In this document: piece after piece, positions 4,571 to 58,406 of the stretch
Layout of the letters: each line of letters starts with the position of its first letter
How positions within the stretch are numbered: the first letter of the stretch is position 1
Virus genome (UHGV): UHGV-0310767
Length of the DNA: 64,000 nt
Reading direction: 5' to 3' (one strand)
From: a virus
The notes under the pieces: generated by a model
Told to the model about the DNA's origin: nothing
Databases searched by the model: none
What the model saw: only the letters and a program-made list of their open reading frames with translations
Program-made: the position numbers and the translations under genes

Positions 4571-4843
4571 ATGACAGGAAATTTTGATATAAATAAAGAA
4601 TTATTGGATGTAATGAGAATTATCGCAAGACAAGAAATAGAAAAATGTAATAGAGATATTACAAAAACTGCTAGAGTAATAGCGGTAAATACTGATAAAA
4701 CAGTTAAAATAGAAATGGATGGAAAACAATATGATAATATTCCTAATTATAATGGGACTACTTTAACAACTAATGATATTGTAAAAGTAACTTATCCTCA
4801 AGGACAGACAAGTAATATGTATATATCTGGGGGGGGCGTTTAA
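4571..4843 (+). CDS. Small tail-module protein (90 aa). Ends in GGGV, encoded by a G8 tract, and is possibly the N-terminal half of a protein fused with the next ORF.
   Basis: Good RBS (aaaggagtgagatatt ATG). ORF ends at the G8 tract 4829-4836. Confidence 0.5.
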   Translation: MTGNFDINKELLDVMRIIARQEIEKCNRDITKTARVIAVNTDKTVKIEMDGKQYDNIPNYNGTTLTTNDIVKVTYPQGQTSNMYISGGGV

Positions 4844-15173: not shown

Positions 15174-16526
15174 ATGGCTATAATGAATAACTTTGCTTCT
15201 GGTGGTGCGCCTACAGATGAATTGACGGCAACCCCGGCAGAAGTAATGAAAGGTTATAAATTTCTAGGTGCTGGTTCTGATGAAGAACAAACTGGTACAT
15301 TGGAATTAACTGGAAATGCGGCTGTTAATCATGTTTTACAAGGTGAAACATTTTATAATACAAATCCTAAGAACAAACTTACAGGTACTATGACTGTAAA
15401 TAGTATATTTTCTTTTAAGGCGCAAGTAGTCAGTGGGCGGCAGATTTTGTTTACATGGCAAAATCCGACTACTGCGACAGGAAAGCCGTTCAGCGGAGTA
15501 TGTATAAATTATTCTACTTCTGGATATCCTGGTACGGGAGGTACACGATTATATACAGGAGTAGGAAGCAATAGTGCTTCTGGTGGTACATCTCAAGCTT
15601 ATTTAAATTTACCTAATCTTAATACAGCTTATTATTTTAGTTGTTATTCTTTTGTGAATATTAATAATAATGCAGATAATAAGTATGGTACAGTATTCAA
15701 TGCTAGTGCAACTACAGGAAGAAACATAAGTTTAACTTTTACTCAAAGTCAAGACTATACAATTCCAGGAGGATTTACATTGTTAGATGTATTCCTTGTA
15801 GGAGGTGGAAATAGTGGTATAAGAGGTAACGGAAGAGCTAATAATTGGAAATATGCAGGAGATGGAGGTGGCGGTGGTTATACCAAAACGCAAAGAAATA
15901 TTGGTATAGCTGGCGGTCAAGTTTTAAGATTTAATGTAGGTGGTGGTGGTGGATTTGTTGCAGGTTTAGCATACAATCAATCTGGACAAAGAACTTTTAA
16001 TGTAGGAGGGGTTTCAAGTGTAGTAAGAAGTGGAAGTGTTTTAGCTACTGTTAATGGAGGAAATGATTTTAATGGTGGCTCTGGTGGCGGCGCATATGGT
16101 GAACAAGTATATTTTGGAGAGAATGATTTTAAACACTATGTAGGAAATGGAGGTTCTAATGGTGGAAATGGTGGTTCTACTTTAATAAATAGAAATGGAA
16201 CTACAAGACCAGGAGGTGCAGGACAGAGATTTAGTACAAGAGCCTGGGATGGAACAGGTGCACAATACTCTGCTGGTGGCGGTGGTGGTGCACAACCAGG
16301 AGCAAGATTAGCTGGTTCTGGCGGCTCTGGTGGTAGCCCAGGTGGAGGTAAAGGTGGTAATGCTTGGGCTGGTGGAACAAATGGAGAAAATGGACAAAAC
16401 GGTTCTGCAAATACTGGCTCTGGCGGCGGTGGTGGCGGCGGTTGTGCCTATTATCAAGGTCGTTCTGGTGGTAGTGGTGGAGGCGGTGCTGGTGGTTCTG
16501 GTATCATTTTAGCCATTCTTCATTAA
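15174..16526 (+). CDS. Glycine-rich tail-fibre paralog 2. Intact, with no homopolymer at the N-terminus (MAIMNNFASGGAP).
   Basis: 450 aa. Conserved N-terminal domain (LTATPxEVxxGYKFxG ... TGNAxxNHV ... NPK ... SGR ... PYSGV). Long Gly-rich C-terminal part ending in GSGIILAILH. Confidence 0.7.
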   Translation: MAIMNNFASGGAPTDELTATPAEVMKGYKFLGAGSDEEQTGTLELTGNAAVNHVLQGETFYNTNPKNKLTGTMTVNSIFSFKAQVVSGRQILFTWQNPTTATGKPFSGVCINYSTSGYPGTGGTRLYTGVGSNSASGGTSQAYLNLPNLNTAYYFSCYSFVNINNNADNKYGTVFNASATTGRNISLTFTQSQDYTIPGGFTLLDVFLVGGGNSGIRGNGRANNWKYAGDGGGGGYTKTQRNIGIAGGQVLRFNVGGGGGFVAGLAYNQSGQRTFNVGGVSSVVRSGSVLATVNGGNDFNGGSGGGAYGEQVYFGENDFKHYVGNGGSNGGNGGSTLINRNGTTRPGGAGQRFSTRAWDGTGAQYSAGGGGGAQPGARLAGSGGSGGSPGGGKGGNAWAGGTNGENGQNGSANTGSGGGGGGGCAYYQGRSGGSGGGGAGGSGIILAILH

Positions 16527-16564: not shown

Positions 16565-17284
16565 ATGATTGTACATCAGGTTTATGCGTATATTTGGAAT
16601 GAAACTGTACAGAATGTTGTAGTATGTGATAATTACCAGTTAGCGAATGATATCGCCAAAGGTTGTTATGGTAATGATGCTTTTGCTGTAGATTGCTTAC
16701 AATATCCTTGTCAAATTGGAGATAAATATGTAGATGGGAGATTCTATAGAGTTCCAGACGCTACTGAAAATGGAGTGTTGATAGCAAAACCTATGGATAC
16801 TACACCTGTTGATGTTAGTAAATTAGTGGAAATTGAATATGTTTCAACACAGGAACAGGAAGTTGCTACTTTAAAAGCACAGAATGCTATATTAGCTACT
16901 GCTACTTCGTTTATGATTAACACCTTTACAGATGAACAAGCTATTATGGTAGCTGACCTTTATCCTTTATGGTCTGGTGAAAGTGTAAAATATGAAGTTG
17001 GAGAAAGAATAAAGGATGAAAATTATATCCTTTATAAAGTAATTACTGCTCATACGTCACAGCCAGATTGGAAACCTTCTGTATCTCCTTCATTATTTGC
17101 AAAAGTATTAGTGGAAAATCCTAATGAAGTTACTGAGTGGAAACAGCCTGATAGCACTAATGGTTATGATAAAGACATAGTAGTACTTCATAATGGAAAG
17201 GAGTGGAAGTCCCTTGTAAACGGTAATATATGGGAACCAGGAGTTGTAGGAACAGAAACTTTATGGGAAGAAGTAATAAAATAG
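16565..17284 (+). CDS. Hypothetical protein within the tail-fibre cluster (239 aa). Possibly a fibre assembly or accessory protein.
   Basis: RBS gaaaggaaaagaaaa ATG. Located between fibre paralogs 2 and 3. Confidence 0.4.
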   Translation: MIVHQVYAYIWNETVQNVVVCDNYQLANDIAKGCYGNDAFAVDCLQYPCQIGDKYVDGRFYRVPDATENGVLIAKPMDTTPVDVSKLVEIEYVSTQEQEVATLKAQNAILATATSFMINTFTDEQAIMVADLYPLWSGESVKYEVGERIKDENYILYKVITAHTSQPDWKPSVSPSLFAKVLVENPNEVTEWKQPDSTNGYDKDIVVLHNGKEWKSLVNGNIWEPGVVGTETLWEEVIK

Positions 17285-17630: not shown

Positions 17631-18866
17631 ATGAGTATATTAAACCACTTCCCTACTGGGGGGGGCATAAGTGATACACTAACGGCTACGCCAGAGGATG
17701 TAATGAAAGGGTTTAAATTTGTAGGTTTGCTTCAAGATGATGTGGAAATTGGCACTTTAGAACTTACAGGAAACGCTTTAATTAATCACGTTACAAAAGA
17801 CAAGACATTTTATACTACTAATCCCAAACAAATAATGACAGGAATTATGGAAGTTAATAATGCTAGTAATCTTGTGCTAAGTTTGGCTAGTGGACGTAAC
17901 GTAATAATAAAATGGACTAATCCCAAAGTGACTACAGGCAGACCTTATAGTGGCGTTTATGTTCGTTATCAGACAGGAAGTTATCCAACGCCAACTACAG
18001 GTACACAAGGGTACAAAGGGGTAGGGAGTACTTCTTCGGCTGGTAGCGTATCTCAGGTCACTTTGGCTTTACCTAACCTTAATACCACTTATTACTTCAT
18101 TGTTTACTCTTATTGCACTACCAGTAATGGAGAATTAATTGGCTCTCAATTAAAAGGTACTATAAAAACAGGAAATACTCAAACAATTACCATAAAAAGT
18201 AATCAAAATTACACTGTGCCAGCAGGATATAAAACAGCAGACATATTTTGTGTTGGTGGTGGTGGAGGTAATTATTCCAGTTCTAAATATTATAGTGGAG
18301 GTGGTGCTGGGGGAGGATATACTAAAACTGTTAGCAATATAGGCATTTCTTCTGGTCAAGTACTAAGTTGTACAATAGGAGGAAGTGGTGGGGCAACTTC
18401 GGTTTCTCGTAGTGGAACAGTACTTTGTATTGCTAATGGAGGGAAACAAAGTTCTGCTGGTACTGCTAGTGTAGGTGGTTCTGGTGGTGGCGGTTATACA
18501 GATAATTCAAGATACAATGGAGGAAATGGTGGTAGTAATGGAGGTGGTGGTTCAAGTTCTGGTGCTGGTGCTGGTGCTTTAGGACAGGGAACAACCACAA
18601 GAGCATTTGGTGAAAGTTCTGGTGCTTTATACTCAGGAGGGGGTGGCGGCGGTGCCTACTACTCTAGTTCATCTTCTGGTGGTGCAGGAGGTGCAGGAGG
18701 CGGTGGTGCTGGTGGAAGAAGAAGTAGCCGTCCAGGACAAAATGGGGCCGCTAACACAGGTGGGGGTGCAGGAGGTGGATTTCAAAGTAATACTTCTAAT
18801 CCTTCTGAAAATCCTGATAACAGTAGCCAAGGAGGAAGCGGTATTATTTTAATTAGATTAAAGTAA
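17631..18866 (+). CDS. Glycine-rich tail-fibre paralog 3. In frame, with a G8 tract (17658-17665) encoding the conserved FPTGGG.
   Basis: 411 aa. N-terminus MSILNHFPTGGGISDTLTATPEDVMKGFKF. Ends in GSGIILIRLK. Closest to the minus-strand copy at 47324..48467. Confidence 0.7.
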   Translation: MSILNHFPTGGGISDTLTATPEDVMKGFKFVGLLQDDVEIGTLELTGNALINHVTKDKTFYTTNPKQIMTGIMEVNNASNLVLSLASGRNVIIKWTNPKVTTGRPYSGVYVRYQTGSYPTPTTGTQGYKGVGSTSSAGSVSQVTLALPNLNTTYYFIVYSYCTTSNGELIGSQLKGTIKTGNTQTITIKSNQNYTVPAGYKTADIFCVGGGGGNYSSSKYYSGGGAGGGYTKTVSNIGISSGQVLSCTIGGSGGATSVSRSGTVLCIANGGKQSSAGTASVGGSGGGGYTDNSRYNGGNGGSNGGGGSSSGAGAGALGQGTTTRAFGESSGALYSGGGGGGAYYSSSSSGGAGGAGGGGAGGRRSSRPGQNGAANTGGGAGGGFQSNTSNPSENPDNSSQGGSGIILIRLK

Positions 18867-18905: not shown

Positions 18906-19763
18906 ATGGCAATACTTAATCGTTTTCCTACTGGGGGGAGGCTTATCTTCTGAGGTCACAGCAACTAACAATCAGCTTTTAACAGGGTATACAGCTATAA
19001 CGGCTAACTCTGATGATGAACCAATTGAAGGAACTATGCCTAATTGTGGTACACAGAATTATAGTTTACCTATAAATGGAAGTTATACTATCCCAGAAGG
19101 TTATCATTCTGGCGAAGGTAAGGTAACTCAATCTGTTACTACTATGAAGAGTTCTAATATAACACCTAATACATCTGTAGTAACAATTCCCACCAATCAG
19201 AAATATATTGATGGGAATTTTACTATTCCTGCATTTGCTTTACCATCTGCTTCTATTTTGAAAAAAAAGGAGCAACATATACTTTATATGGAAAAAAGGT
19301 TACAGGAGAATTTGAGGGCTTCGTTCCTAGTGTTACAGATTTATATTACAAAGGAAATAATATAGCTAATTTCAGTTTTAAGGTGGCATATGGATATTCT
19401 GTACTAGGCTCTGTTAAATTTGAAACTGCTCAAATGATAACTACATCAGATAGAAATGGAACTGCTGGCCCTTTATGTAGTGGAAGAAGTTATAATTTAA
19501 CTCCTTATAATTCAATTAATATTGAAGTAAATCCTCCAACTCCATCTATTTCTTTATCTACAGTTTATAGGGGTGTAGTATTTCATTATGGGAGTGATTT
19601 AAATACAAGAGATGCATTTATAAATTCAACAAAACCATCAACTTATGTATTTAGTTTTGATATATCAGGAATAAATGCAACTAAATGGTTTGCGTTTATG
19701 TTTTTTTATAAAGAAAATACTAGTGCCTATAAAGGAATTATAAATCGTATTTGGTTCAGTTAA
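18906..19763 (+). CDS. Tail-fibre-like protein 4. It has the same FPTGG N-terminal leader and a different, non-Gly-rich body. It is currently broken into three ORFs by a G6 tract (18933-18938) and an A8 tract (19261-19268).
   Basis: ATG 18906 with RBS gaaagggaataatt. The frame reconnects to ORF 19036..19365 with G5 or G8. ORF 19036..19365 reconnects to 19383..19763 with A9, giving a plausible continuous sequence ...ILKKKGATYTLYGKKVTGEFEGF... Confidence 0.5.
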
Positions 19764-20716: not shown

Positions 20717-20903
20717 ATGGTAACTATGAATAAGTGGGGGGGCAAATGGTACTGCCGAAGCAGAATTTTGCGGTTTAAGTACTGACAATAAACCCGTAGA
20801 CGAAGGAATTCCTAATGGTTCATCATTTTTTGAGATGGATACATTTAAGGTATATTTCTTTAATAAAATGACAAAAACATGGATAACTGAGGGAGGTGTT
20901 TAA
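20717..20903 (+). CDS. Small protein downstream of the lysin. A G7 tract at 20736-20742 gives a 22-aa truncation; G6 (or G9) would give a 62-aa protein (..ANGTAEAEFCGLSTDNKPVDEGIPNGSSFFEMDTFKVYFFNKMTKTWITEGGV).
   Basis: Strong RBS ggaggtaaaaaat ATG. The alternative frame is open to 20903 and abuts the next gene. Confidence 0.35.
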
Positions 20904-33303: not shown

Positions 33304-34797
33304 TTATTCTTCCTCTCTATCTGCCCTTTCAAATTGTAATGATAAACTTAAATCAGGATTTACATTACGAATTTTTATTACACTATGCGTAAAGACAGAA
33401 TTTTTATATTTCTTTGCTATAAATTCTTCTTCATCATCTTCACTTTTACGATATCCTGATATCATAAGTAGTGTACCTTTTTTAAACCAATTAGTATCTT
33501 CGTCAAATTCTTCTGTTTCACTAATACTTTTTTTATAGTAAGCATACTGTCCTTCATTAAATTTAACCATAACTACATCATTATCTGGTGTAAGAAGATT
33601 AATAAAATGTTTACTGTCGTTACGACTTAATACCACACCACATATTCTTGAAAGGTCGTATTGTCTCCATTTTCTTTTCCCATTCTTACTACTTTTTTCT
33701 ACAAAAATAGGAGATGTGGGTAAATCTTGATAATGACTAATATTATATTCTTCAAAATCAATACCTGTAAGTTCGTGCTTATCTGGATAAAAAGAAATGG
33801 TTTCCATACTCCATTTAGGAATATTTTCATACTTTACCAGATTCATATATTCTTGTTGCCAATATTTCTTATTGTATTCTTCTACTAAAGATGGATTATT
33901 AATATAGCTTATTAATTCATCTAATTCTGGTTTTAGAACTTTATCCAAAGATTTATCAATAACAATAAGCATATCATTCTCGTAATAAAAATCTTTTCCT
34001 TCTGTAAGGTCATTAATATAATGTTCCTCAAAGAATGGTCTAGCAAATTTATCCTCAAGTATATAATCTTTTTTAGTCTTAAATTTCTCATTCTTACGAT
34101 AAAAGAAATTAGGACTTTCTACATATTTTCTAAAGTTATATACTTTAACAAGGTGTTTAGGAAGCGTACAACCCAATTCTAAGCATTTAGAAAGATTAGC
34201 CATAGTAAGAGTTGTCTTAGCTGGATTCTCCCAGCATATAAGCCATTTAAGCATTAATATCTTATCATCACATAATGAATCGAAACAACCAGCTTTAATT
34301 AAAGTGGCAAATATACTTTTTGTAACTAAACTTTTTCTATAAATCATATTTCCTTTTTCGTCCAATTCTCCCGTGGGAACTAATAAATTCTTCTGATAAT
34401 CATAAAATTCTTTGAACGAATTATAAGGTCTGCCGCTCATAATATCTTTGGCAACATCCCTATTCATTTTAGTAATTCCACCTAATCCAAAAAGAATTAA
34501 ACTTTCGTCTACTAAAGGAGTAAAGGATAAGTCTGATTTATTTATATCTGGCGGCAATGTATTTATACGATAATCTTTCATACGATAAATAGCTTTTGCC
34601 ATTTTTTCATAATTAGTTCCAGTATTCTTTTTCTTTCTTTCTAAATCTTCATATTCATCTTCATTTTCTTCTGTTGATGAAGATTCTACAGTTAAACAGG
34701 CACAAGCCCAAAATACAGGAGGAAAGAAGTAATTTACATTGAGTTCTTGTAAACCAATTACTGAGTAAGCGTACGAATGTAATTGGGAAAAGGAATT
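33304..34797 (-). CDS. dnaE: DNA polymerase III alpha subunit (DnaE-type) exon 3 (C-terminal part: HhH and OB region). The 5' boundary is approximate.
   Basis: The frame is open from 34797. Encodes ...HSYAYSVIGLQ...FWACACLTVESSS...TLPPDINKSDLSFTPLVDESLILFGLGGI, matching the DnaE FNKSHSAAYALVSYQ ... ILPPDIN ... FGLGAIKGVG region. Confidence 0.7.
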   Translation of the reverse strand, partial: NSFSQLHSYAYSVIGLQELNVNYFFPPVFWACACLTVESSSTEENEDEYEDLERKKKNTGTNYEKMAKAIYRMKDYRINTLPPDINKSDLSFTPLVDESLILFGLGGITKMNRDVAKDIMSGRPYNSFKEFYDYQKNLLVPTGELDEKGNMIYRKSLVTKSIFATLIKAGCFDSLCDDKILMLKWLICWENPAKTTLTMANLSKCLELGCTLPKHLVKVYNFRKYVESPNFFYRKNEKFKTKKDYILEDKFARPFFEEHYINDLTEGKDFYYENDMLIVIDKSLDKVLKPELDELISYINNPSLVEEYNKKYWQQEYMNLVKYENIPKWSMETISFYPDKHELTGIDFEEYNISHYQDLPTSPIFVEKSSKNGKRKWRQYDLSRICGVVLSRNDSKHFINLLTPDNDVVMVKFNEGQYAYYKKSISETEEFDEDTNWFKKGTLLMISGYRKSEDDEEEFIAKKYKNSVFTHSVIKIRNVNPDLSLSLQFERADREEE

Positions 34798-36188
34798 TCA
34801 ATAGTTTTAATTGCATTTCTACAACATATGTATTCCATAAACATATGAAATCATATGAACTATTGAGGACTATATCTTTGTAAAAATTAAAAAATGAATG
34901 AATGATATTATAAAAAATAACAAAGACGACAATTTTTTTAGTTTCTATTTAATTTCCTTTTATTAGGATTATTCCTAACTAATGTAGATTTAGTAATCCC
35001 CGTCATTTCAGCCACTTCATCATAGGTATGAGTTTTTAATAATTCTAATGCTTTACTCATATCTTCTTCTGAATAAGCTTTATAACTTTTACCTCTTTCG
35101 ATATTCCACATTCTACCTTCATTATCAGGAACTTCATTATTAAAACAAAACCATAATTGTTCCCTAGTTATAGGTAATGTAGCAATAGAAGTATAAGTGT
35201 TTACTTCATTATTCTTAATAGAAGTATATTTTTTAGGCTTATTATCATTGACAGCTTTTATTCTTTCTACATCTATTTGACTAGGAATTTTTGCATATCT
35301 CTCAATTAAAATATTATAATCTCTATAATAATGATTTTTATAAGATAAACGATACATTCTCATAGTATCTTTATTTTCATCATTATAAGAATTATAAACT
35401 TTAATCAACTCTCCATTTTCGTCATATTCTACACATTTTCTACTATTAGATTCTGTAGCTTTAAGTTGATTAATTCTACAAGATTCTTTACGTTTTTCAC
35501 TATCTTTGTTAATCAAACCAGTAGCAGAAGCATGAATCATATTAAGTTTTCTGTCTACCCATTCTAAATTAGTAGCTTTATTATTAGTTTTATCTCCATC
35601 AATATGATTTACTTCTTTATATTGTTCTGGTTTAGGATTTTCACAAAAAGCAAATGCTACTAATCTATGAACCATATAGTTATGTCCTTTTAAATTAATT
35701 CCCATATATCCAGTATTATTATTTTTGCAAGATTTTATATTCTTTTTGTTATGTTTTATATTGCCTAAATTACTTATATAATAATCTTTACTTCCCTCAA
35801 TCTCTTTCCAAATTTCCATTCTTTCTGAATTTTTCATATTTTCCTCCTTTCTTCATTATTTTTTAAAACAATCATTCATTCATCATCATTCATTTTTTAA
35901 TATTACAGATTTGCACTTCCATTAACGTATCAATAGTTAATGTACTTCCTGTCGGAATAGTCTCTACATCTTCTTTAATATTACTATTAAAGCTTGACAC
36001 GGTATTATCAGCTATCTATATATCTTAATATAGACCTTAGAATTTCTTAGTCAGCGGCTTCGTCCTTTTTATTATGCTGTAATCTAGTTGTAACTCTTGT
36101 ACAGCGGTCTTATTCAACTGATACCGTTAGCATTGCACTTCTATGCAACACACCCCTGATAGGGTTCACAAATCATGACCATTATTAC
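34798..36188 (-). mobile_element. Group-I-intron-like intervening sequence 2 in dnaE, carrying an HNH endonuclease ORF. Boundaries are approximate.
   Basis: About 1.39 kb between the dnaE coding segments. The homologous DnaE sequence stops at ...FGY and resumes at ...SQLHSYAYS. Contains ORF 34938..35837 plus about 350 nt of non-coding structured sequence. Confidence 0.6.
34938..35837 (-). CDS. Intron-encoded HNH homing endonuclease (NUMOD4/HNH_3-like; 299 aa).
   Basis: N-terminus WKEI...YYISNLGNI (NUMOD4-like) then HRLVAFAF...VNHIDGDKTNNKATNLEWV (HNH_3). Confidence 0.7.
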   Translation of the reverse strand: MKNSERMEIWKEIEGSKDYYISNLGNIKHNKKNIKSCKNNNTGYMGINLKGHNYMVHRLVAFAFCENPKPEQYKEVNHIDGDKTNNKATNLEWVDRKLNMIHASATGLINKDSEKRKESCRINQLKATESNSRKCVEYDENGELIKVYNSYNDENKDTMRMYRLSYKNHYYRDYNILIERYAKIPSQIDVERIKAVNDNKPKKYTSIKNNEVNTYTSIATLPITREQLWFCFNNEVPDNEGRMWNIERGKSYKAYSEEDMSKALELLKTHTYDEVAEMTGITKSTLVRNNPNKRKLNRN

Positions 36189-37313
36189 ATAGCCAAAACT
36201 CATACCAAATAATTCATACCATATATAATTGGCAAATAATTCTCTACACCCTTGTTTAATACAATGCTCAAAGAACATGATTCTTGTGGCTTCTAACACT
36301 TCATCGTCTTTTTTTGCTATAGCTTTTCTTAATTTATTGGCCTGTTTAAGACTAAATCCTGCAACTCTTTTATCCATGGAAATAAGCATAACTTTTTCCT
36401 GGGATTCTGGAAGCATACGAGAATCAGAACAATATTGTCTTATAACGTCCATTTCATCTTCTGTTAATCCATATTCATGACAATCTTTTTCCCATTCTTT
36501 TACATCGGCATATCTAGCATATCTCTGTAATGGAGTCTCAGTAGTTTCACCACTACCCATCAATCGTAATATGGAATTAGTTGCAGATAACTCCATTAAA
36601 TTTTTGGGCTGTACTACATTAATAGCATTTACTGACACAGGAGTATCGAACTGAAATAAAGAATAAATATCTTTAATGATTCCCCACATAGAAGGATTGT
36701 CATAATTTATAACATCTGGATGTAAGTACTTATCATATGTTGCTTTTAAATTACCTTGCCATTCTAAATATTTATGCTCAACCAATAAATCCATAGTAGT
36801 TCTTAATTTATCGCTGGCTTTTACTGTAAGCATATCTACTTTAACAATACCGCAATCTTCACAATCCTGCAAATCATAACAAGTACATAAATCTCCATTA
36901 GGGGCTTTCATACAAGAAATATAGTTAGTATAAGGCTCATTTGAGATAATTAATCCTGCGGCATGAAGTCCTCTACCAACGACAATTCCTTCTAAAGCTA
37001 ATGCACACTCTTTAAGATTAGGATACTTGTTAATTTCCTTTATAAATTCTTTTGCTGGTTTTCTATTTTTTTTAGTATTTCCTTCTAAACAATCCTTAAG
37101 ACTCCAAATCATTCCTCTTTCTACTGGAATTAAAGATTTAAGATATCCTGCGGCATCATCAGAAATTCCTAAACCTTTACAGGATTTTTCTATAGCTGTT
37201 TTGGAAGTCATTTCAGAAAATGTAGCCACTTTTAAAACCTTATCAAATCCCCAGAATTTTGCAATGTTGTGTGCAATAATTTGCTTTTTTGTATTCTGTG
37301 AATCTAAATCAAT
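36189..37313 (-). CDS. dnaE: DNA polymerase III alpha exon 2 (polymerase core middle part). Boundaries are approximate.
   Basis: Begins IDLDSQNTKKQIIAHNIAKFWGFDKVLKVATF (DnaE PD|IDIDF...VAQIATFG) and contains GRGLHAAGLIIS (DnaE GRHAAGVVI). Confidence 0.7.
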
Positions 37314-38163
37314 CCTTTATACCCCTGGTTTCCCAGTACTTTAACACATTTTATTTCAAATGTGGGAGTAGACTATATCTTCATCTTGTTTTATCAACAA
37401 GAGGATGGCACAGGATAAAAGGAATTTCACCTTTTACCACTTAGTCGTTTGAGTTTCAGCGCAATGTAATAAGTTTGAAATTTCTACTATAACCCCTTCT
37501 CATTAACATAGAATGTGAAACATCTAAATTATGAGAATCAATATATTTCTTTACCTCAGTGTTACCTTTTAATTTTGGACTTTTGTTACCATTAGGATAA
37601 ACTATTATATAATATAAATAATTTCTTACTGCATTTATTCCTGATGTTTCATAACTTTTATTTATATTTTCTTTTTGAGTTACCCATTCTAAATTGGTGT
37701 AATGATTATTAAGTGTATTTGCATCTTTGTGATTTACTACAGCACCTTCAAACCATCCAGGAACAAATGCCATAGCTACCAATTGATGAACCCCTTTTCT
37801 ATACACTTTATTATCCTTACTTAAGTCCACATATTTGTAACCGCCTTTATTAACAAATCCATTTAATATTTTGGGATTTTTATATTTATGGCTAATTACT
37901 TTTCCATCTTCTGTAACACTGTATTTTTCAAACTTATCAATTATTTTTTCTATTCTTTTTTTAATTTCCTTTCTACATATTCTTATTACTTGCGCCGCTT
38001 ACCACAGGATTACCATGCTTTTTTTAAAGTTTAGGCTTCCCCTGTTAGCACAATTCCTAATCATCATTTCCTATGATTCCTAAACGTGAATTGTACACCC
38101 TAGATTTCTAGGTTCACCATCTTATTTTCTATATGTCACCATATAGCCAGACTATTGAAGTTA
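37314..38163 (-). mobile_element. Group-I-intron-like intervening sequence 1 in dnaE, carrying an HNH endonuclease ORF. Boundaries are approximate.
   Basis: Exon 1 ends ...GIEIPD (last nt U) followed immediately by a stop. Exon 2 resumes IDLD after ...taaag|g. Contains ORF 37456..37830. Confidence 0.6.
37456..37830 (-). CDS. Intron-encoded HNH homing endonuclease (HNH_3; 124 aa).
   Basis: HQLVAMAF...VNHKDANTLNNHYTNLEWVTQKEN. Confidence 0.7.
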   Translation of the reverse strand: MDLSKDNKVYRKGVHQLVAMAFVPGWFEGAVVNHKDANTLNNHYTNLEWVTQKENINKSYETSGINAVRNYLYYIIVYPNGNKSPKLKGNTEVKKYIDSHNLDVSHSMLMRRGYSRNFKLITLR

Positions 38164-39585
38164 ATCTGGAATCTCAATACCTCTTTCTGTACTTAAATGT
38201 CTCCAATATGGAGCATAGTCACCCAAAGGTACAGGGTCAATTTGTGTAATTTCTAATAAATAACATGTTAAATATCCAAAAGCTGAACCTCTGGACGGCA
38301 TACAAAAACTATTTGATTCCCAAATTATTTCTACAATTCTACTTACACTAGTATAATAAGCCGCCATATGAGATTTGAATATTTCACTTAATCCTTTTAA
38401 TTCTTTAGCTTCTTTATTGATTCTATCAATATATGTTTCTAAATTCTTTTGTGGCTTACTTTCAATAAGTTTTTCTAACCCTTTTTCTACACGATAGAAA
38501 AAATACTGGTCTTGAATATTATCAGAATAAGCATAATATTTAAAATACTCATATTTATTATAATATTTTTTATATCTATGAGTAATTTTAAATTCTGGTA
38601 TTTTGTCCAATGGAATCTCTGGTATCATAGGCATATGTTTTAAATCATATGTTCTTACTCTATCTGCAATTTCATTACTATTTTTAAATATTGTATCTAT
38701 TTCTTCATCTGTAAATGTAATTCTTAAATGTTCCCTTAATTCCTGGGGAGACATAAGATAAGTAGTTGCATAGAAAGAATCTACTTCTCTGTCTCCATCT
38801 TTAGAATTAAGTAAAGTTTTATGATATAATGCTGATTCTTTGTTAAGATAATGAGTATCAGTTGTGGCTATAATTTTAAAACCATATTGTACTGAAAGTT
38901 CTTTCATGGCTTCATTCACTATAAGCTGGTCAACATTATCCTCTTTACACGGCTGAATCTCCAAGTAAAAATTGTTAGAGCCGAAAACTTTATTACACCA
39001 GGATAAAAAATCGCTTATGCGTTTTAAAACGCCTATACTCTTTTGTACCTCTTTATAACCCGGTTCTGGTTTCTTCCACTGCAAGATAAGTTTGTCAAGA
39101 TAGGAACCAAGACATGCAGAAGATGCAATTAAATGTCCTTTATTATTTCCGATAATTTCTTCTATATCAGAATAATAAGTTGGTCTACGCATAAGTCTAC
39201 GGGATGTATAAGCACGTTGCCATGCTTTACTACTTATTTCTCTTAATTGCTTATGACCTTCTGTATCTAAAGCAGTTAAAATAAAATGGTAATAGGGAGT
39301 ATAATCGGTTCCTTCTCTATTACTCATATCTTCTGCTTCACTCATAAGATATATTTCATTTCCTAATGCTAATTTAAAAGGTCTATCTTTCTCCATCTTT
39401 TCATAATATTTCAATGCTTGCATATGAGAAGATATACCTTCATGTTCTGTAATAGCTATTCCAGATAGCCCCAAATCATAAGCATACTGAATTAACTCAT
39501 TAACTCTAGTAATAGCATCAGGAAAACCTAATAACGCACTACTATAACATGAATGATTATGATTATCAAAATAAATATCTGTCAT
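38164..39585 (-). CDS. dnaE: DNA polymerase III alpha exon 1 (PHP domain plus the start of the polymerase core).
   Basis: N-terminus IYFDNHNHSCYSSALLGFPD (PHP HxH). Ends ...RHLSTERGIEIPD. Confidence 0.75.
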
Positions 39586-44246: not shown

Positions 44247-44699
44247 TTATAAAGTCTTATTAATTCTTTTGTGTCTTTTACCAATTCTTCTTTTTCCTTT
44301 TTTTTCTGTTAATTCTCTTTGTTTTTTTCTTTTATTTTCATAGTAAGATTTTATTTTTGAATTATAATTAGAAATAGCTAATTTCATTGCATTTTCAGAA
44401 ACTTTATCTTCTATAAAAAATCTATCTTTAGGATAATAATTAGCTATACAGTTATTAACTTCAAAATCATAAAGAGAATTTAAAGTATAATATATTCCAT
44501 ATTTTTCTCTAATACATAATTGTTCTTTTGTTAATTCTGAATCCCCATTTCTTTTATAATAAATATAATGAGAATTGATATAAACAATAGGAAATTTTTC
44601 TAATGCAAAATATATACAATCTCCATGTTTATTAAGTGTTAATTTATAAATGCGTTTAAATTTACTTAAATCTTTTCTATTGGGTACAAATACTGCCAT
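44247..44699 (-). CDS. Hypothetical protein, paralog A1 (150 aa; MAVFVPNRKDLSKFKRIYKLTL...).
   Basis: Clear paralog of 46830..47312, sharing N-terminal MAVF(V/I)P..K....SKFK.IY.LTLEK....F.LEKFPI.Y.NS..IY.K.NG and a basic Lys-rich C-terminus. Confidence 0.5.
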   Translation of the reverse strand: MAVFVPNRKDLSKFKRIYKLTLNKHGDCIYFALEKFPIVYINSHYIYYKRNGDSELTKEQLCIREKYGIYYTLNSLYDFEVNNCIANYYPKDRFFIEDKVSENAMKLAISNYNSKIKSYYENKRKKQRELTEKKGKRRIGKRHKRINKTL

Positions 44700-46602: not shown

Positions 46603-46631
46603 AATATATCATATAAAATACTTTTTGTCAA
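46603..46631 (-). promoter_or_regulatory. Candidate promoter for the primase gene, with a 21-bp upstream motif also found at 61269-61289.
   Basis: Minus strand: TTGACA, 17 nt, TATATT. Preceded by the motif TTTTACTTTACGAATTGAAGG (46649-46669) and a hairpin terminator (46668-46705). Confidence 0.35.
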
Positions 46632-46829
46632 TAGTTTTTATCTTTATCCTTCAATTCGTAAAGTAAAATAACTCCCTAGTTTAAATCTGGGGAGTTATTT
46701 TTATTCACAATATTATTTACACAATGCTTAAACTACCTATTTTGAATAAATGAAAACTGCTATCAGGTTCCCGGTGTTAGCCCACCGGGACTTTTTATAT
46801 CATGTCCACATATCCAGTCAATAATCATA

Positions 46830-47312
46830 TTAATCAAAAAATTGCTTTCGATATTTATGTTTTTTCTTACTATTATTATAGCGTTTTATTAAATTTTGTA
46901 CATCTTCTTCTCTTTTTTTCTTTTCTTTTTTTATTTCTTCTTTTTCTAAATATTGTTTTATATTTCGATTATACATAGAAATAATTTTTTTCATTATTTC
47001 TATAGACAATATATCATCTACGAAATATTCACGTAAAGAATAGTCATTCATATTTAAACAATAAATATCAAAAAGGCGTTCTAAAGTACATTGTAATCCA
47101 TAATTATTATCTACGGTATTATATATAGTTTCCCTAATTAATTTCATATTTCCATTTTGTTTAAAATAAATAAAAGAAGAATTAAGGTAAATAATGGGAA
47201 ATTTTTCTAATGTGAAAAATACATTCCCTTTAGATTTTTCAAGAGTTAATCTATAAATATGTTTAAATTTAGACAACTCTACTTCTTTTTCTTTAGGTAT
47301 AAATACCGCCAT
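46830..47312 (-). CDS. Hypothetical protein, paralog A2 (160 aa).
   Basis: Paralog of 44247..44699. Immediately downstream of the minus-strand tail-fibre paralog. Confidence 0.5.
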   Translation of the reverse strand: MAVFIPKEKEVELSKFKHIYRLTLEKSKGNVFFTLEKFPIIYLNSSFIYFKQNGNMKLIRETIYNTVDNNYGLQCTLERLFDIYCLNMNDYSLREYFVDDILSIEIMKKIISMYNRNIKQYLEKEEIKKEKKKREEDVQNLIKRYNNSKKKHKYRKQFFD

Positions 47313-47323
47313 AATTTTTCTCC

Positions 47324-48467
47324 TTATTTTAATCTTATTAAAACAACACCTGAACCTCCTGTAGAAATATATCCTTGATAATTTCCACCAGCACCACCGC
47401 CCGTATTAGTTCCTCCGTTACCAGCTTGCCAACTGCCATTAGAACCTCCACCGCCGCCCCCGGCACCGCCGCCACCAGGGCTTCCTCCACTTCTTCCAAA
47501 ACCACCACCACCACCACCGCCTGAATATATAGTTCCATTAGATTCCCCAAACGCTCTTGTAGTAGAACCTTGACCTAGGCCACCACCACCAGAACCACCT
47601 TGTCTACCTGCTGAATTAAATCTAGGGTTTCCATCTCCACCATTAGCACTACATAATGTACTACTTCCTTTTTTTACAGTGGTAGTTCCTCCTTTATTAC
47701 CTCCATATCCACCTCCACCAATAGTTATAGATAACACATCTTTTTCAGCTACAGTTATATTATTAACAGTTTTGGTATATCCTGCACCGCCACCACCATT
47801 AGCATAATAACTAGAATCCCCATATTCACTACCACCACCTCCGCCAACACAGAAAACATCTATTTTAGAATATCCTGCTGGAATTGTGTAATTAGAAGTT
47901 GCTTTGATAGTAATTATCTGAGAACTACCTGTATTTACTGTAGCTTTTAATTGTGTTCCTAAGATTTCCCCATTGGATGTTACACAATAAGAGTAAACAA
48001 TGAAGTAATACATAGTATCAAGAGAAGGAAGGGATAAAGCTGTTGTAGATATCCCTCCACTCTCTTGTGATGTTCCTACTCCCTTGTACCCTTCTATACC
48101 TGTATCTGGTGTAGGATAGGAACCTGTTTGATATCGGATATATACTCCACTATAAGGTCTACCTAGTTCTTCAATAGGATTAGTCCATTGGACTGTAATA
48201 TTTCTACCACTAGAAACAGACAAAATTAAATTGCTTACATTTCCTGGCTCTAGGGTGCCTGTTAGTGAATTTTTGGGGTCTACAGTGTAAAACGTAGTAC
48301 CTTTGGTTACATGGTTTTTTACAGCATCACCTGTCAACTGTAAGGAACCAGTCTCTACATCGTCTGTACTGGCCCCTACGAATTTGTAACCATCCATAAC
48401 AACGGATGAATCGGCTGTCAAGCTATCAGGTATGCCCCCCAGTTGGGAAGCGGTTTAGTATTGGCAT
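47324..48467 (-). CDS. Glycine-rich tail-fibre paralog 5 on the minus strand inside the replication module. Its N-terminus MPILNRFPTGG is followed by a G6 tract (+ strand C6 at 48435-48440) that places the body (ORF 47324..48421) out of frame; G8 would restore it.
   Basis: ATG at 48467 with RBS (aaaggagattaag ATG). About 70-75% nucleotide similarity to 17631..18866, including the identical 26-mer tattacttcattgtttactcttattg. Ends in GSGVVLIRLK. Confidence 0.6.
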
Positions 48468-48483
48468 CTTAATCTCCTTTATT

Positions 48484-49289: not shown

Positions 49290-49526
49290 TTATTTTTTGT
49301 TGTATATCATTCCAAACAAGAATACATATATTCTAAAAAATCTACCCACTTCCTGGTCACTTTCAACAAAATAATTATCACACAAATGCTTCCCATTTTC
49401 ACAAGTTCCCAAAAATATTTTAATTCTGCCAACCAAAATGAGATAACTCCCTCTATTAAGTTTAATCGTTTCATCGTATTTTCTTATTGTTCCTTTCTTC
49501 ATTTTATATACTTCAATTTTATTCAT
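49290..49526 (-). CDS. Hypothetical protein (78 aa)
   Basis: ORF only. Confidence 0.3.
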   Translation of the reverse strand: MNKIEVYKMKKGTIRKYDETIKLNRGSYLILVGRIKIFLGTCENGKHLCDNYFVESDQEVGRFFRIYVFLFGMIYNKK

Positions 49527-51039
49527 TATTTATTATTGTCCTTTCTACACTCAATGGAGAATTGAATTGATTGGTACAAAATATATCTTCTGTTCTACCC
49601 GTTCCTAAGTCTATATACTGCCATACTTTAACACCTTGACCATACATAGAAAATCTGGTTTTATAATTATGAGTAATATGGGTAGGCCGCTTACATGTAC
49701 CAAATCCTTTACGATTTAATAATGTATCTACTAATTCCATTTCTTTAGGTCTTAAAGGAAGGATAATCCCTCCATCATCTAATTTAGTTTTAATCTGTTT
49801 TGAACCAAAAATACAATTTTCGTCAATAATATCATTGACAGATTCTTTTCCGTTAAGCTGAGTACCACTATAAGTTCCTATATCATATTCTTCTGATAAT
49901 GATTTAAGAACTTTTGCAATCTCAAACAATACCATATCTTGACGAATAGGTGTACTGACTCTTTGTTTGTATTCGCTACCAAATTCTGAGTTATCCCAAA
50001 TATAATCAAAGAAACAATATTTTGCACCCCATAAAAAACATTGCCTATAAATATCCTTTAACTTTGGCGTGGTAAAATCTGGCTGGTTAAAAATTTCAAT
50101 ATGAGATTCATATAAAATTTTTCCTGCTTCCAGTAATCTTTCTTTTTCTATTTTATTATAATTTCCATTAAGTATCCTATGATAAGGAATACCACTAATC
50201 CAAGAAATAAATTTAGGCTGTACCTCCGTTTTCTGTTGCATTTCTGTGTGAATCATAAAACCGTCACCATCACGATTAGGATTATCTACATATCTTTCTT
50301 CTTTGTAATCCCAATACTTAGTGGCGCATACGTTGCACAAATCTCCTATAGTTGTGGTTGTTTTGCCCCCTCCACTTCCACCAGACCTCAATAATAAATG
50401 TCCTTGTTGCCATCCTCGATAAAAAGTATTCATATAAGGAGATTGTAACATAGCACCCATAACAGGATTACTTTCAAATTCAAGTAATGTATTTTCCCAA
50501 TCAGCACCAGCCCTCATAGTTTCTTTACATAATTCTGTATCGTACTTCATGTTAAGCTTATCAGTTTTCTCACTAATTTTAGTCAACATTTTCTTTATAT
50601 CAAATAAATTAAGATTCTCTCTTTGACTTTCTTCTGTTTTATCTTCATCATAAAATGAAGTTATATCAATTCCTAAATCTTTGGCATCTCTCAATAAACT
50701 ATATTTTCTTACAATATTGTAATGCAATTCATAATTATCTGGATTTACCAATTGTTTTGCAGTTGATATAAAATCCAAATAATTATTATCCATACATACT
50801 TCTAATTGCGAAGGATAATTTTGTAAGAATTTATCCAATATTATTTCATCTATTTCTTCTGCGCCATTTTTAAACAACCATGCAATAGATTTAAATAATA
50901 TTTCATGAAATAGAATAGGTTTAAAATCATCTGAACAAATAGGAAATTTTCTACTTGTGACCAAAGAAGGATTTTGAAACAATATTCCTAATACCATAGA
51001 ACTGTCAGAAGCAGAATAAAGCATTATAAATCCTCCCAT
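49519..51039 (-). CDS. DnaB-like replicative DNA helicase (506 aa).
   Basis: Walker A LRSGGSGGGKTTTT in the C-terminal RecA-like domain. N-terminal helical domain. Length and position. Confidence 0.6.
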   Translation of the reverse strand: MGGFIMLYSASDSSMVLGILFQNPSLVTSRKFPICSDDFKPILFHEILFKSIAWLFKNGAEEIDEIILDKFLQNYPSQLEVCMDNNYLDFISTAKQLVNPDNYELHYNIVRKYSLLRDAKDLGIDITSFYDEDKTEESQRENLNLFDIKKMLTKISEKTDKLNMKYDTELCKETMRAGADWENTLLEFESNPVMGAMLQSPYMNTFYRGWQQGHLLLRSGGSGGGKTTTTIGDLCNVCATKYWDYKEERYVDNPNRDGDGFMIHTEMQQKTEVQPKFISWISGIPYHRILNGNYNKIEKERLLEAGKILYESHIEIFNQPDFTTPKLKDIYRQCFLWGAKYCFFDYIWDNSEFGSEYKQRVSTPIRQDMVLFEIAKVLKSLSEEYDIGTYSGTQLNGKESVNDIIDENCIFGSKQIKTKLDDGGIILPLRPKEMELVDTLLNRKGFGTCKRPTHITHNYKTRFSMYGQGVKVWQYIDLGTGRTEDIFCTNQFNSPLSVERTIINNE

Positions 51040-51686: not shown

Positions 51687-51739
51687 CTTTCCACCTCCTT
51701 AATAATTATTATATCATTTCATTTATCTTTTGTCAATAT

Positions 51740-51970
51740 AAAGTTAATGGATTCTTATAAGAACTAAACCAGTTCCACCACTACCTCCCATTCCTTCGGC
51801 TCTACCACCACTGGATGAAGTACGAGAGCCGCCACCGCCCCCACCTCCACCGCCGCCTGTGTTAGCCGCGCCAGCAGTTCCAGAAGAAGCCCCACTACCA
51901 CTACTTCCTGTACCACCTCTACCGCCACCGCCAGAGCCACCGGTTGACCAGTATAGCTTTTATATGACGG
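51740..51970 (-). pseudogene. Remnant of a glycine-rich tail-fibre paralog: C-terminal fragment only, frameshifted.
   Basis: The minus strand encodes ...WSTGGSGGGGRGGTGSSGSGASSGTAGAANTGGGGGGGGGSRTSSSGGRAEGMGGSGGTGLVLIRIH*, matching the family C-terminus (GSGVILIRIK). An upstream stop and frame change mean no intact N-terminal domain. Confidence 0.6.
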
Positions 51971-52141: not shown

Positions 52142-53526
52142 TCAGGCCAGCGCTTTCTGTTTCAAAGCAGTAACCTTGTTCTTTGTCGGTATCATTTGCG
52201 AAAACACCTTCATAAGAACTTGTTTTACAATACTGTTACCAGCTTGCTTATAGAGTTGGGTGTTGCTGTTCACAGAAGCAGCTTTCCAGTAATCTTCATC
52301 TGTGAAACCCATCAACCTCCAACACTCAAGTGGTGTCAGCTTACGAATACGAATGAGATACAATTCTCCGTTAATCTCATAGATGAATTTGTGAAACTGC
52401 TCTGGAATTTCGTTTGCAAGTCTGCTTTCTAACAGAAAGTTATCCTTCTGTACAGTAGTTATAGTGTTGCAAACACCATCTAATCTAGGTTCGGCTTCTC
52501 TGTGTTCGTTATAGCCGTGGTGTACTTCTCCGGCTTCATACGCTTTTCTAAGACGTTTTCCTTTTCTTGTAGAACTTGAACCACAGTTTGATGTTAGAGT
52601 GGTCATTGTTTTCTGGTCTCTATGAAACCCAATTCTCTTACATTCAATGGCTGCATTGCTACCGTAGTTGCTGAGTCCCTTGTAATCTCTGGACAAGAGT
52701 GTGGCTGCAACATCTGTTTGTCTTGCATCAGGTGTTCTGGCTTCATCGGAACTTCCGCAGTTACGCAAGATGATACCATCCCCCCCTGTTCAAGGAACGG
52801 AACTATCTTCCCAGAGAATACCAGCTTATCAACAAGGTCTTTGGCTTTTTCGGATGTAAGATAGTATTTGTCCTCAACCTGAGGTTCAAGGAAATCAGCC
52901 ATAACAGTTGTGAGAGGTTCAATCTCCGGGAAAATGAACTCATAATCCCCTAAAATGCTTACTGCAATACAGCGATTTCTTGATTGGGGTATTCCATAGT
53001 TCATTGCGTTAAGGTCTTGCCAGAAAGTCTTATATCCTCTTGACTCAAGGTAATTAAGCCAGTTTTCAAAGTCTGGCATATTCTTCTTAGAGTGAACTTG
53101 AGGAACATTTTCCATAACCAGAACTTGCGGTAATTGCTCAGTTTCGTTAAGCAAACGCTCAACTTCCCACAAAAGACCAGAGCGTGTACCACTGTCTTTT
53201 CTCATACCTTTTCCCTTGCCAGCCACAGACAAATCTTGACAAGGAAAAGAATATATAAGCAAGTAAGTATAACGGTCTGTGTCAACAATACCAAGGTCTG
53301 CCCCTGATATTTTTGTAATATCCATCGTTGGAAAGTTGGTTCCATGAATTGCGTTGTAGCTTGCAACCGGGTACTTATCGAACTCAACCACACGGTAGTG
53401 TTCAAAATCTACCCCTATGTCACGCAATGCCATAGCTTGACTACCTACACCTGCGAACAGTTCAATAAGTCGAATAGGCTTATCAATCTCATATTTCATT
53501 AGTGCATCCTCCTCCTTCTTCCTCAC
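52142..53526 (-). CDS. DNA (cytosine-5)-methyltransferase, split into two overlapping ORFs by a G7 tract (+ strand C7 at 52780-52786). G6 (or G9) gives a full-length enzyme.
   Basis: N-terminal ORF: LFAGVGS (motif I), PCQDLSVAG (motif IV), ENV (VI), QSRNRCIAV (VIII). C-terminal ORF: TLLSRDYKG (TLTAR-like) and LYKQAGNSIV (motif X). The frames join as ...FLEQGGDGIILRNCGSS with one G fewer. Confidence 0.75.
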
Positions 53527-57587: not shown

Positions 57588-58406
57588 CTATGCTAACTGC
57601 ATATTAAGCATTACATTTTTCACAGTTTCTTCTGTATTATGAGAATATCTCTGAGTAGTAGAGATATCAGAATGACAAATTACATCTTTAGCAATATTGA
57701 TTCCATACTCATTACATATCTCACTAACATAAGTATGTCTTAAAGTATGATTACTAATATGTTCTTCAATATCTGCTTTTTCTGCAACCTTACGTAACAT
57801 TTTAGAAATACAATCCCTTCTCATTGGGGTGCCATGATTACTAACAAATAAGTTAGGGATTCCTGAATTTTTACGTACTTTTATATATTCGTCTACAATT
57901 TTCCTACATTCTTCATTAAAGTATATTTTTCTCTCCCTATCCCCTTTAATTTTAATGGTTACAGTTTGAGAATTATACTGCTCTAAACTTAAATTAATAA
58001 GTTCACTAACACGCATACCCGTAGAAAGATATATAGCAATAATAGCTTTATCTCTAGGATTGCTGGCTTCTGTTAATAAGTTTTTAGCTTCCTTCATAGG
58101 AACATAGTCTTTCTTTTTATTCTTAATTGTTGGAGATTTTATTGTTGTTGCTGGGTTTAATGTCATAGTACCAACCTTACATAAAAAGTCATAGTAACTT
58201 TTTATAGCTGTAAGCTTTCTAGCGATTGTAGCACTGGCGTACCCTCTTTTAACCATCTCTGATTTCCAGTCATAAACTTCTCCATATGTAATTTTTGTTT
58301 CTTCTGTATTTACAAAATCAAAAAATTGATTAATGTCACTTTCGTAAGAAATTCTAGTATCTTCACTTTCAAACCCACCTAAAAATCTTTTAATATTGTT
58401 ATTCAT
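57588..58406 (-). CDS. Small tyrosine site-specific recombinase (XerC/D-like or invertase-like; 272 aa).
   Basis: Box I TGMRVSEL (catalytic Arg). Box II HTLRHTYVSE (HxxR). Tyr in STTQRYSH. No N-terminal arm-binding domain. Confidence 0.75.
   Translation of the reverse strand: MNNNIKRFLGGFESEDTRISYESDINQFFDFVNTEETKITYGEVYDWKSEMVKRGYASATIARKLTAIKSYYDFLCKVGTMTLNPATTIKSPTIKNKKKDYVPMKEAKNLLTEASNPRDKAIIAIYLSTGMRVSELINLSLEQYNSQTVTIKIKGDRERKIYFNEECRKIVDEYIKVRKNSGIPNLFVSNHGTPMRRDCISKMLRKVAEKADIEEHISNHTLRHTYVSEICNEYGINIAKDVICHSDISTTQRYSHNTEETVKNVMLNMQLA

Follow-up and report, generated by a model that had tools for sequence, protein, structure and literature searches.

The 64,000-nucleotide (nt) stretch of virus genome UHGV-0310767 analysed here (the window) carries, on its minus strand and inside the replication module, a full-length member of a glycine-rich tail-fibre family whose reading frame is interrupted at a run of six G residues (G6). 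We describe this inverted gene, its relatives and the part that it may play as a switched-off tail-tip gene. By megablast, the window falls in a group of siphoviruses of Enterocloster bolteae, a common gut bacterium of medical interest for which virulent phages were described only recently. The group comprises PMBT24 and its five relatives CB457P1, CB457P2, CB473P1, CB473P2 and CB473P3, to which we added metagenome contigs (L numbers). Segments of the window are 83-99.8% identical to PMBT24 (OQ326496.2, 99,962 bp), with 98-99% identity over most of the window. Genes for the tape measure, baseplate, fibres and lysis lie on the plus strand, and from about 23 kb on the minus strand carries genes of nucleotide metabolism, replication and recombination. 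The inverted gene has the Gp157 gene, a gene of 92 amino acids (aa) and DnaB upstream and the primase downstream, and the following features were read at the locus.

48474..48480, minus strand: ribosome-binding site (RBS) AAAGGAG, 6 nt ahead of the ATG (direct read)
48426..48467, minus strand: leader open reading frame (ORF) as assembled, ATG, MPILNRFPTGGHT, TGA, then TAG
48435..48440, minus strand: G6 run, the frame switch, which reads C6 on the plus strand
47324..48421, minus strand: gene body, 365 codons open in the G8/G5 frame
Parts of the body, minus strand: N-terminal beta region; FN3 domain, about 47933..48241; glycine-rich domain, 47330..47902
46830..47312, minus strand: small Lys-rich gene of 160 aa, co-inserted 3' of the inverted gene

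The ORF of the inverted gene (47324..48421, minus strand) is 365 aa long when counted from the TTG at 48421. An ATG lies at 48467, 46 bases upstream of this TTG, and is preceded by GGAG at 48474-48477. From this ATG the leader MPILNRFPTGG is read, whose 11 residues form the N-terminal leader common to all members of the family, and the G6 run follows. With G6, the leader frame stops after 13 codons (TGA TAG, 48426). The body is joined to the ATG by G8, G5 or G11 and not by G6, G7 or G9. With G8 the gene reads MPILNRFPTGGGIPDSLTAD..., parallel to paralog 3 of the plus strand, which has G8 and is in frame, and the G8 junction TGGGIPDSLTAD is collinear with TGGGISDTLTAT of that paralog. The product would be 381 aa long with G8 or 380 aa with G5, collinear with the in-frame paralogs, with FPTGGGIPDSLTADSSVVMDGYK as the junction peptide of the restored frame and GGTGGTGGC as the locked in-frame form of the leader. 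A preliminary description of this DNA had reported a full-length family member on the opposite strand within the replication module, with its own RBS, start, leader and G-run switch, out of frame with G6 and restored by G8. All of this was confirmed, and we found that G5, not mentioned there, restores the frame as well.

The product of the inverted gene matched the Pfam family PF21722 (Gly_rich_2) with 51.2 bits (gathering threshold, 24.3; E value, 2.2e-13) over residues 174-364 and profile positions 4-225 of 226, as well as the PHROG tail families phrog_863, phrog_356 and phrog_6202. An AlphaFold (AF2) model built from 44 homologs had a mean predicted local distance difference test (pLDDT) score of 86 and shows the polyglycine/polyproline II (PPII) bundle fold of the solved Bxb1 gp33 and Pam3 fibre. 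The nearest solved structures in a fold search were parts of the virion tail tip, namely, Bxb1 gp33 (PDB 9D93) and the tail fibre of cyanophage Pam3 (PDB 7YPX); further matches consisted of many FN3 domains, which aligned to the middle of the protein. Sequence searches against solved structures (profile search and single-domain search) returned linker-like noise only, and the fold search alone was informative. No paper on PF21722 was found in the literature. Bxb1 gp33 and gp29 and the Pam3 fibre hold polyglycine/PPII helical bundles resembling the domain with which the adhesin of Salmonella phage S16 recognises its host (2026; PMC13243192), and the Bxb1 wings gp30, gp31 and gp33 are accessory and non-essential (PMC12646305). 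Thus, the closest solved relatives of the inverted gene product are accessory tail-tip parts of the virion.

Five genes of the window open with the family leader, Mx(I/V)(L/M)NxF(P/A)(T/S)GG, and the plus-strand paralogs among them come after the baseplate genes and a 1087-aa fibre-like gene.

14265..15133, plus strand: paralog 1, G7 at 14292-14298, out of frame
15174..16526, plus strand: paralog 2, leader without a G-run, GGTGGTGCG
17631..18866, plus strand: paralog 3, G8 at 17658-17665, in frame
18906..19365, plus strand: non-glycine-rich gene with the family leader, start at 18906, G6AGG with the run at 18933-18938, out of frame
Start at 48467, minus strand: the inverted gene, G6, out of frame

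Paralog 2 is always in frame because its leader has no G-run. Paralog 1 has an in-frame internal loss of 124 codons relative to PMBT24. Since one leader stands in front of differing bodies, the proteins may all dock at a single site of the virion. The paper on PMBT24 describes thin tail-tip fibres and globular appendages and makes no mention of these genes or of their G-runs. Two further observations concern this cluster. At 18906..19763 (plus strand), the body of the leader-bearing gene is split into 19036..19365 and 19383..19763, and a single 241-aa ORF is annotated in PMBT24. A gene located after paralog 2 and before paralog 3 (16565..17284, plus strand) has a CBM_5_12 carbohydrate-binding module and may encode another surface-binding tail component.

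When paralog 3 (17631..18866) was used as a tblastn query against the window, the inverted gene was matched with 54% identity over 409 aa (E value, 2.8e-141), far beyond chance. Their nucleotide identity had been put at 70-75%; we measured 66.6% over 733 nt (54% at the aa level), and 70.5% over 393 nt was obtained with paralog 1. Several shared stretches of 26 nt had also been claimed for paralog 3, of which one exact word was recovered (48010 versus 18090). A single exact word of 36 nt is shared with paralog 1 (48392 versus 14341).

We then compared the inverted gene with its ortholog in the metagenome contig L016. The two are 81% identical at the aa level, and the ratio of nonsynonymous to synonymous substitution rates (dN/dS) is 0.154 at a dS of 0.83, with similar values across the three domains. 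Seven assemblies, which represent at least two deep lineages, keep an intact body of 350-394 codons, and none of 2000 shuffled bodies stayed open. Length variants differ by whole codons (P0001, 386 aa; P0002, 357 aa). These comparisons indicate that the gene is not a decayed pseudogene and that purifying selection acts on its body. Over the first 14 codons it matches the L016 ortholog at every nucleotide, while the proportion of synonymous differences (pS) in neighbouring codons is 0.70. In each of the three domains, the protein is equidistant from the other paralog classes (52-67% aa identity), compared to 71-85% for the L016 ortholog, which indicates an orthologous lineage of its own. As the equidistance holds in every domain, we see nothing to suggest that the gene recently exchanged sequence with its plus-strand paralogs.

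We use the name slot A for the site flanked by the 92-aa gene and the primase. A second site, slot B, has a 112-aa gene (after RecA) on one side and the 220-aa YorH-like gene on the other, and there PMBT24, CB473P1, CB473P3, CB457P2 and many metagenome contigs have a minus-strand family gene with the same leader. The state of both slots in the isolated phages and in the window is given below.

Slot B of PMBT24: G9, out of frame
Slot B of CB473P1: run interrupted, locked in frame, 423 aa
Slot B of CB473P3: G9 then ATA, in frame
Slot B of CB457P2: G9, out of frame
51750..51953, minus strand: remnant of the slot-B gene of the window, its 3' 200 nt approximately (tblastn), matching the 3' end of the PMBT24 slot-B gene at 99.4% identity
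46829..48345, no strand assigned: slot-A segment missing from PMBT24, 1517 bp (megablast map, junction read)

PMBT24 keeps in slot A the RBS, ATG, leader, G6 and the first 120 nt or so, and CB457P1 has a longer stump with G7 and the same right-hand joint. In L016, the joint sequence TTCAATTCGTAAAGTAAA... directly follows an intact slot-A gene; PMBT24 and CB457P1 are thus nested deletion derivatives. All four combinations of presence and absence were observed: both slots are occupied in L014 and L029, slot A only in the window, slot B only in PMBT24, four CB phages, L023 and L026, and neither in CB457P1. A search of a phage collection with the N-terminal/FN3 part of the family recovered only the six phages, each with a minus-strand copy or remnant in its early module. 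Together with the window, a copy or remnant at one of two fixed slots was found in 7 of 7 group genomes, making the extra inverted paralog a regular, variable feature of the group. The placement had been described as unusual; a structural-type gene does stand among replication genes, but it is not an oddity of this genome.

The small gene at 46830..47312 has, as had been noted, a paralog at 44247..44699 (45% aa identity; E value, 1e-31). ORFs of 160 aa also lie 3' of the slot-A gene in L028 and L029 (sequence likeness not compared), and none is present in L016. The small gene had no match in Pfam, PHROG, NCBIfam or PADLOC.

In slot B of the window, the remainder of the family gene is replaced by a cytosine methyltransferase gene (52142..53526). 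This C5-cytosine DNA methyltransferase gene (dcm, TIGR00675; minus strand), which is absent from slot B of PMBT24, is read as two ORFs split exactly at a coding-strand G7 (52780-52786), and G8 would fuse the two halves. By its sequence it may be a phase-variable anti-restriction methylase.

Run lengths differ among near-identical genomes at every family gene. The slot-A run is G6 in 7 of 11 assemblies, G7 in 2 and G9 in 2, and none of the 11 is in frame. Among 14 slot-B assemblies, 8 are in frame and 6 are out, the states being G7, G8, G9 and runs interrupted by A or T, which lock the gene in frame. The run of the gene starting at 18906 is G6AGG in the window, G10 in PMBT24 and G9 in L022. Paralog 1 has G7 in the window and GGTGGTGCG instead in PMBT24, where the G-run is swapped for the 18-nt GGTGGTGCGCCTACAGAT, identical to the leader of paralog 2; we read this change as a short-patch conversion that locks the gene in frame. 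Paralog 3 is entirely missing in PMBT24, with the joint inside the leader/G-run. As an accompanying observation, the plus-strand fibre cluster differs from that of PMBT24 by large indels at homologous points (14666-14681, 15491-16495 and 17665-18912), and PMBT24 is without the bodies of paralogs 2 and 3.

G or C runs of at least 7 occur 8 times in the window, against 1.6 expected and a maximum of 6 over 200 Markov-1 simulations, and all of them read G on the coding strand. Runs of at least 6 are not enriched (10 versus 7.1 expected). The G6 of the slot-A gene, being no rarer than chance in the window, was therefore dropped as evidence by itself; it is meaningful because of its place, the codons at which the paralogs have their G7-G10 runs. 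As in the Fletchervirus phages discussed below, a G-run decides the frame of the start relative to the body. The G6 is shorter than the hypermutable lengths of 7 to 11 G, but other alleles of the gene have G7 and G9 and sister genes in the window have G7 and G8. Outside the fibre family, further coding-strand runs of G7-G8 lie at 246-252, 4829-4836, 10548-10555, 20736-20742 and 60831-60837. ORF 4571..4843 is 90 aa long here; in PMBT24 its run is interrupted (GGGGGAGG) and the ORF has 170 aa. The C7 at 60831 is C5 in PMBT24, within a 93-aa ORF. The sequences of these runs suggest additional candidates for frame switching.

The regulatory setting of slot A was read from the following elements.

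51708..51736, minus strand: perfect sigma-70-like promoter, TTGACA-17-TATAAT with TG (consensus match only)
46603..46631, minus strand: sigma-70-like promoter of the primase operon, TTGACA-17-TATATT with extended TG, directly downstream of the cassette (consensus match only)
46661..46790, minus strand: end of the transcription unit, with a hairpin at 46769-46790 and a second hairpin at about 46661-46696

The second hairpin, ACTCCC(13-nt loop)GGGAGT, is followed by a T-rich tail (direct read). Given the promoters at 51736..51708 and 46631..46603 and the hairpins, the slot-A gene and the small gene close the unit begun by the 220-aa gene and DnaB. The promoter at 51708..51736 likely starts a unit consisting of the 220-aa gene, DnaB, Gp157, the 92-aa gene, the slot-A gene and the small gene. 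The RBS of the slot-A gene stands just 16 nt past the stop of the upstream 92-aa gene, and a promoter of its own therefore cannot fit there. Slot B is likewise flanked by a strong terminator and the next promoter (consensus matches), and a terminator hairpin also precedes paralog 3. In addition, the 20-mer TTCAATTCGTAAAGTAAAAT is found at 46650-46669 and 61270-61289 (plus strand), two copies in the window versus 0.03 expected, with further sites in PMBT24 (about 73590-73617), L012 (about 7150-7172) and L016 (1308-1325). It adjoins terminator hairpins, and the joints of the slot-A deletions have an inverted copy of it; the 20-mer may belong to a terminator/promoter cassette that is repeated.

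We consider it somewhat probable (roughly 55%) that the slot-A gene is a reserve, G-run-gated gene for a tail-tip (receptor-binding) protein, stored in one of two early-module slots. It would be a functional but currently switched-off gene for a distal-tail protein of the receptor-binding or "brush" type. The shared N-terminal leader would dock the proteins of the family at one common site of the tail tip, followed by a beta-rich segment, the FN3 domain and a C-terminal polyglycine-II bundle as the presumed surface-binding part. The G-run at codons 10-12 would gate translation, with G8 or G5 joining the ATG at 48467 to the body and G6 stopping the ribosome. Slipped-strand mispairing during replication would alter the length of the run, so that a minority of the progeny is proposed to carry the gene in frame. 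Slots A and B would be operon-end sites in the replication module for leader-tagged genes throughout the group, the slot-A gene standing at the 3' end of an early operon. Together with the three to four plus-strand copies behind the baseplate genes, they would make up a repertoire of independently switchable tail-tip proteins, a form of bet-hedging against variation of the host surface. The conserved leader and G-run would also be a site at which copies are lost and patched through homologous recombination.

Several points weigh against this interpretation. Slot A is in frame in 0 of 11 assemblies, compared to 8 of 14 for slot B, even though G7 and G9 are each one slip away from G8. This pattern is suggestive and not significant, since the assemblies share ancestry and imply only about four to five independent changes in run length. 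A run of six G is short for hypermutability, and such runs are not rarer in the window than chance predicts. Expression of the gene looks early, which would be odd for a virion part; this timing follows from the sigma-70-like early promoter that precedes the unit and from the lack of room for a promoter of its own. The gene is also dispensable, being deleted in PMBT24, CB457P1 and L030. For the absence of in-frame slot-A alleles, we prefer the reading that the in-frame state is costly on the usual host. A more elaborate form of the proposal is possible but tentative. In that form, the phages hold a distributed library of leader-tagged tail-tip genes that includes two insulated operon-end slots in the early module; slot A is kept out of frame in essentially all natural populations while under purifying selection, as a reserve adhesin that is costly in frame on the usual host (it might compete for the docking site, for instance) and is selected only episodically. 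The leader and G-run would then serve both as a frame switch and as a recombination site for the loss, patching and possibly slot-to-slot movement of cassettes.

The lack of in-frame alleles in slot A can also be read without any switching. A leaderless protein could be made early in the "off" state from the ATG at 48397 or the TTG at 48421; being soluble and unable to dock, it would mask or compete for receptors (superinfection exclusion, decoy) or act inside the cell. Such a protein would account for a body under purifying selection in spite of 0 of 11 slot-A assemblies being in frame and for the position of the gene as the last of an operon behind a perfect sigma-70-like promoter, and the internal Met codon is retained in both deep lineages and used by gene callers (P0001-P0004). 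However, no Shine-Dalgarno motif precedes the ATG at 48397 (GATTCATCCGTTGTT ATG), and the TTG at 48421 is TTA in L016. The perfect conservation of RBS, ATG and leader would be needless if the leader were never fused, slot-B sister genes with the same leader are often in frame, and the nearest solved folds belong to components of the virion. PADLOC, run on the slot-A gene, the 92-aa gene, the small gene and the paralog of the small gene, had no match. We therefore regard a leaderless product as unlikely; the early decoy or exclusion role raised in the preliminary description is unsupported and is kept as a minority rival only. Slightly less likely still is that the gene is a dispensable relic, a displaced duplicate in the course of being lost with the G6 frame break as its first lesion. 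Slot A is never in frame, nested deletions removed the gene in PMBT24, CB457P1 and L030, no copy of it exists in L023, L026 or four CB phages, and slot B of the window was destroyed by the methyltransferase insertion. But a dN/dS of 0.15 over a dS of 0.83, the absence of stops in seven assemblies of at least two deep lineages, length variation by whole codons and the failure of all 2000 shuffled bodies to stay open are not what a relic would leave.

The frame might instead be corrected at the level of RNA or the ribosome: transcriptional slippage at the G-run, or programmed frameshifting there, would yield the full protein at a constant low dose with the DNA unchanged. Consistent with this, lineages with differences at 70% of the synonymous sites nearby have leaders that are 100% identical, including the G-run and the following CATACCTGAT, and GGG GGG would permit tRNA re-pairing after a +1 slip. 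Intact alleles exist, however, in both wrong registers (G6/G9 and G7), which would need opposite shifts, and the other paralogs clearly use length changes at the DNA level; we judge frame correction improbable. RNA structure at the G-run (146 nt folded) was not significant (z, -0.71), and Rfam had no match over the whole window. A small CUUCCC/GGGGGG leader hairpin, tried as a frameshift element, was not significant and was rejected. We give the least credence, very little in all, to the idea that the gene recombines with the plus-strand fibres as a silent donor or partner, whether through gene conversion or through inversion of 30 kb between the inverted leaders. There are inverted exact words of 36 nt (paralog 1) and 26 nt (paralog 3), leader-mediated deletion and short-patch conversion do occur among the plus-strand copies, and L020 joins slot-A upstream sequence to a slot-B-like body. 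Both ideas had been put forward in the preliminary description. Against a gene-conversion cassette, the comparison of ten family members per domain revealed no mosaic block, the slot-A gene being equidistant from the other paralog classes and the longest shared words being 36 and 26 nt; against an inversion, all PMBT24 matches are collinear across the window, as are five other relatives over the matched stretches. Inversion was thus rejected, as was gene conversion with plus-strand copies as a current process for the slot-A gene, although the alignments indicate that conversion does occur in the family, between plus-strand leaders. Separately, in the IMG/VR metagenome 3300023717, L020 (positions 1-100, compared with L019, 1-100) has the slot-A upstream sequence and leader (G9) fused to the start of a slot-B-type gene. 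L020 may be a genuine A/B recombinant or an artefact of assembly, the latter possibility arising because it ends in a 55-nt stretch common to L019, like a contig end at a repeat.

Phase-variable polyG receptor-binding genes are already known in phages, as is the fold; the layout found here is new. The closest parallel to the reserve tail-tip gene is provided by the Fletchervirus phages of Campylobacter, which have runs of G7-11 in receptor-binding protein genes (Sorensen 2021, Cell Rep 35:109214, as reported in PMC12633550). As far as that report goes, the two cases are alike in that the frame of a tail receptor-binding gene depends on a G-run in its coding sequence, several runs occur per genome, run length varies among close phages and the proposed role is diversity against variable host surfaces. 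On the same basis they differ in that the host here is a Gram-positive gut Lachnospiraceae and the phage a siphovirus of about 100 kb, the runs stand at one fixed place in a leader common to a paralog family, and copies are found in the late module and in two early-module slots on the other strand. The slot-A run, G6, is moreover below the reported 7-11, and switching is read here from genome comparison. In a broader survey of phage contingency loci, homopolymer runs with reversible frameshifts are described as bet-hedging across gene classes (Gomez, Barrick and Waters 2025 preprint, PMC12633550). Comparably, the methyltransferase and several small early genes of the window also have G7-G8 runs; unlike in coliphages, in which runs are under-represented in tail fibre genes (PMC12633550), they are concentrated here in a tail-tip family.

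The Bxb1 gp33 tail wing brush (PDB 9D93) and the Pam3 fibre (PDB 7YPX) resemble the slot-A product as distal accessory tail parts, and the non-essential Bxb1 wings (PMC12646305) match the dispensability of the slot-A gene. The slot-A product differs in having in addition the N-terminal leader region of the family and an FN3 domain, and its place in the virion is a predicted one. To our knowledge, neither Bxb1 gp33 nor the Pam3 fibre is phase-variable or present in multiple copies. The gp33 structure is reportedly the work of Freeman et al. (Cell, 2025), and that of the Salmonella phage S16 gp38 adhesin (PDB 6F45) is said to come from Dunne et al. (2018). The S16/T2-type gp38 adhesin has a polyglycine-II domain for host recognition at the fibre tip and is linked by fold to gp33 and Pam3 (PMC13243192), but it caps a long fibre and needs no G-run, and it resembles the slot-A product only in its class of fold. 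Mu (G segment) and P1 (C segment) also have alternative fibre genes on opposite strands and two host ranges per population. In contrast to these, the slot-A gene is without an adjacent invertase or flanking recombination sites (no recombinase lies next to it, and an XerD-like gene is about 9 kb off at 57588..58406), none of the relatives is inverted, and the switch is a change of frame.

Some other differences from the relatives were observed in the window. The gene for the DnaB-like helicase (49519..51039, minus strand) encodes 506 aa here, 501 aa in PMBT24, CB457P2 and L014/L023, and 823 aa in CB473P1, CB473P3, CB457P1 and L026, a difference that corresponds to an intein-sized insertion. The gene for the DNA polymerase III alpha subunit (33304..39585, minus strand) is in three pieces, versus one 1345-aa ORF in PMBT24. 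Its two insertions (34791-36189 and 37304-38165) each contain an ORF for an HNH_3 endonuclease (34938..35837, with NUMOD4, and 37456..37830) and look like intron or homing-endonuclease invasions. Another insertion relative to PMBT24 lies in the baseplate region (6993-8183), and its ORF 7332..8093 (plus strand), with matches to DUF559/REase_MTES_1575-like nucleases and zinc ribbons, is probably another mobile nuclease gene.

If the slot-A gene is indeed a gated reserve, the host range of this phage group would be a property of the population, set by which of four to six switchable tail-tip genes are in frame, and some of these genes would lie outside the structural module, annotated only as truncated "hypothetical proteins." This matters for the prediction of host range from genome sequences and for the choice or engineering of phages against gut Clostridia, where locking an adhesin in frame would be simple and has natural precedents in PMBT24 and CB473P1. 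Frameshifted fibre genes in metagenome assemblies would deserve to be read as switches and not as errors. Contingency loci based on G-runs in receptor-binding genes would then extend from the myoviruses of Campylobacter to a siphovirus of a Gram-positive gut bacterium.

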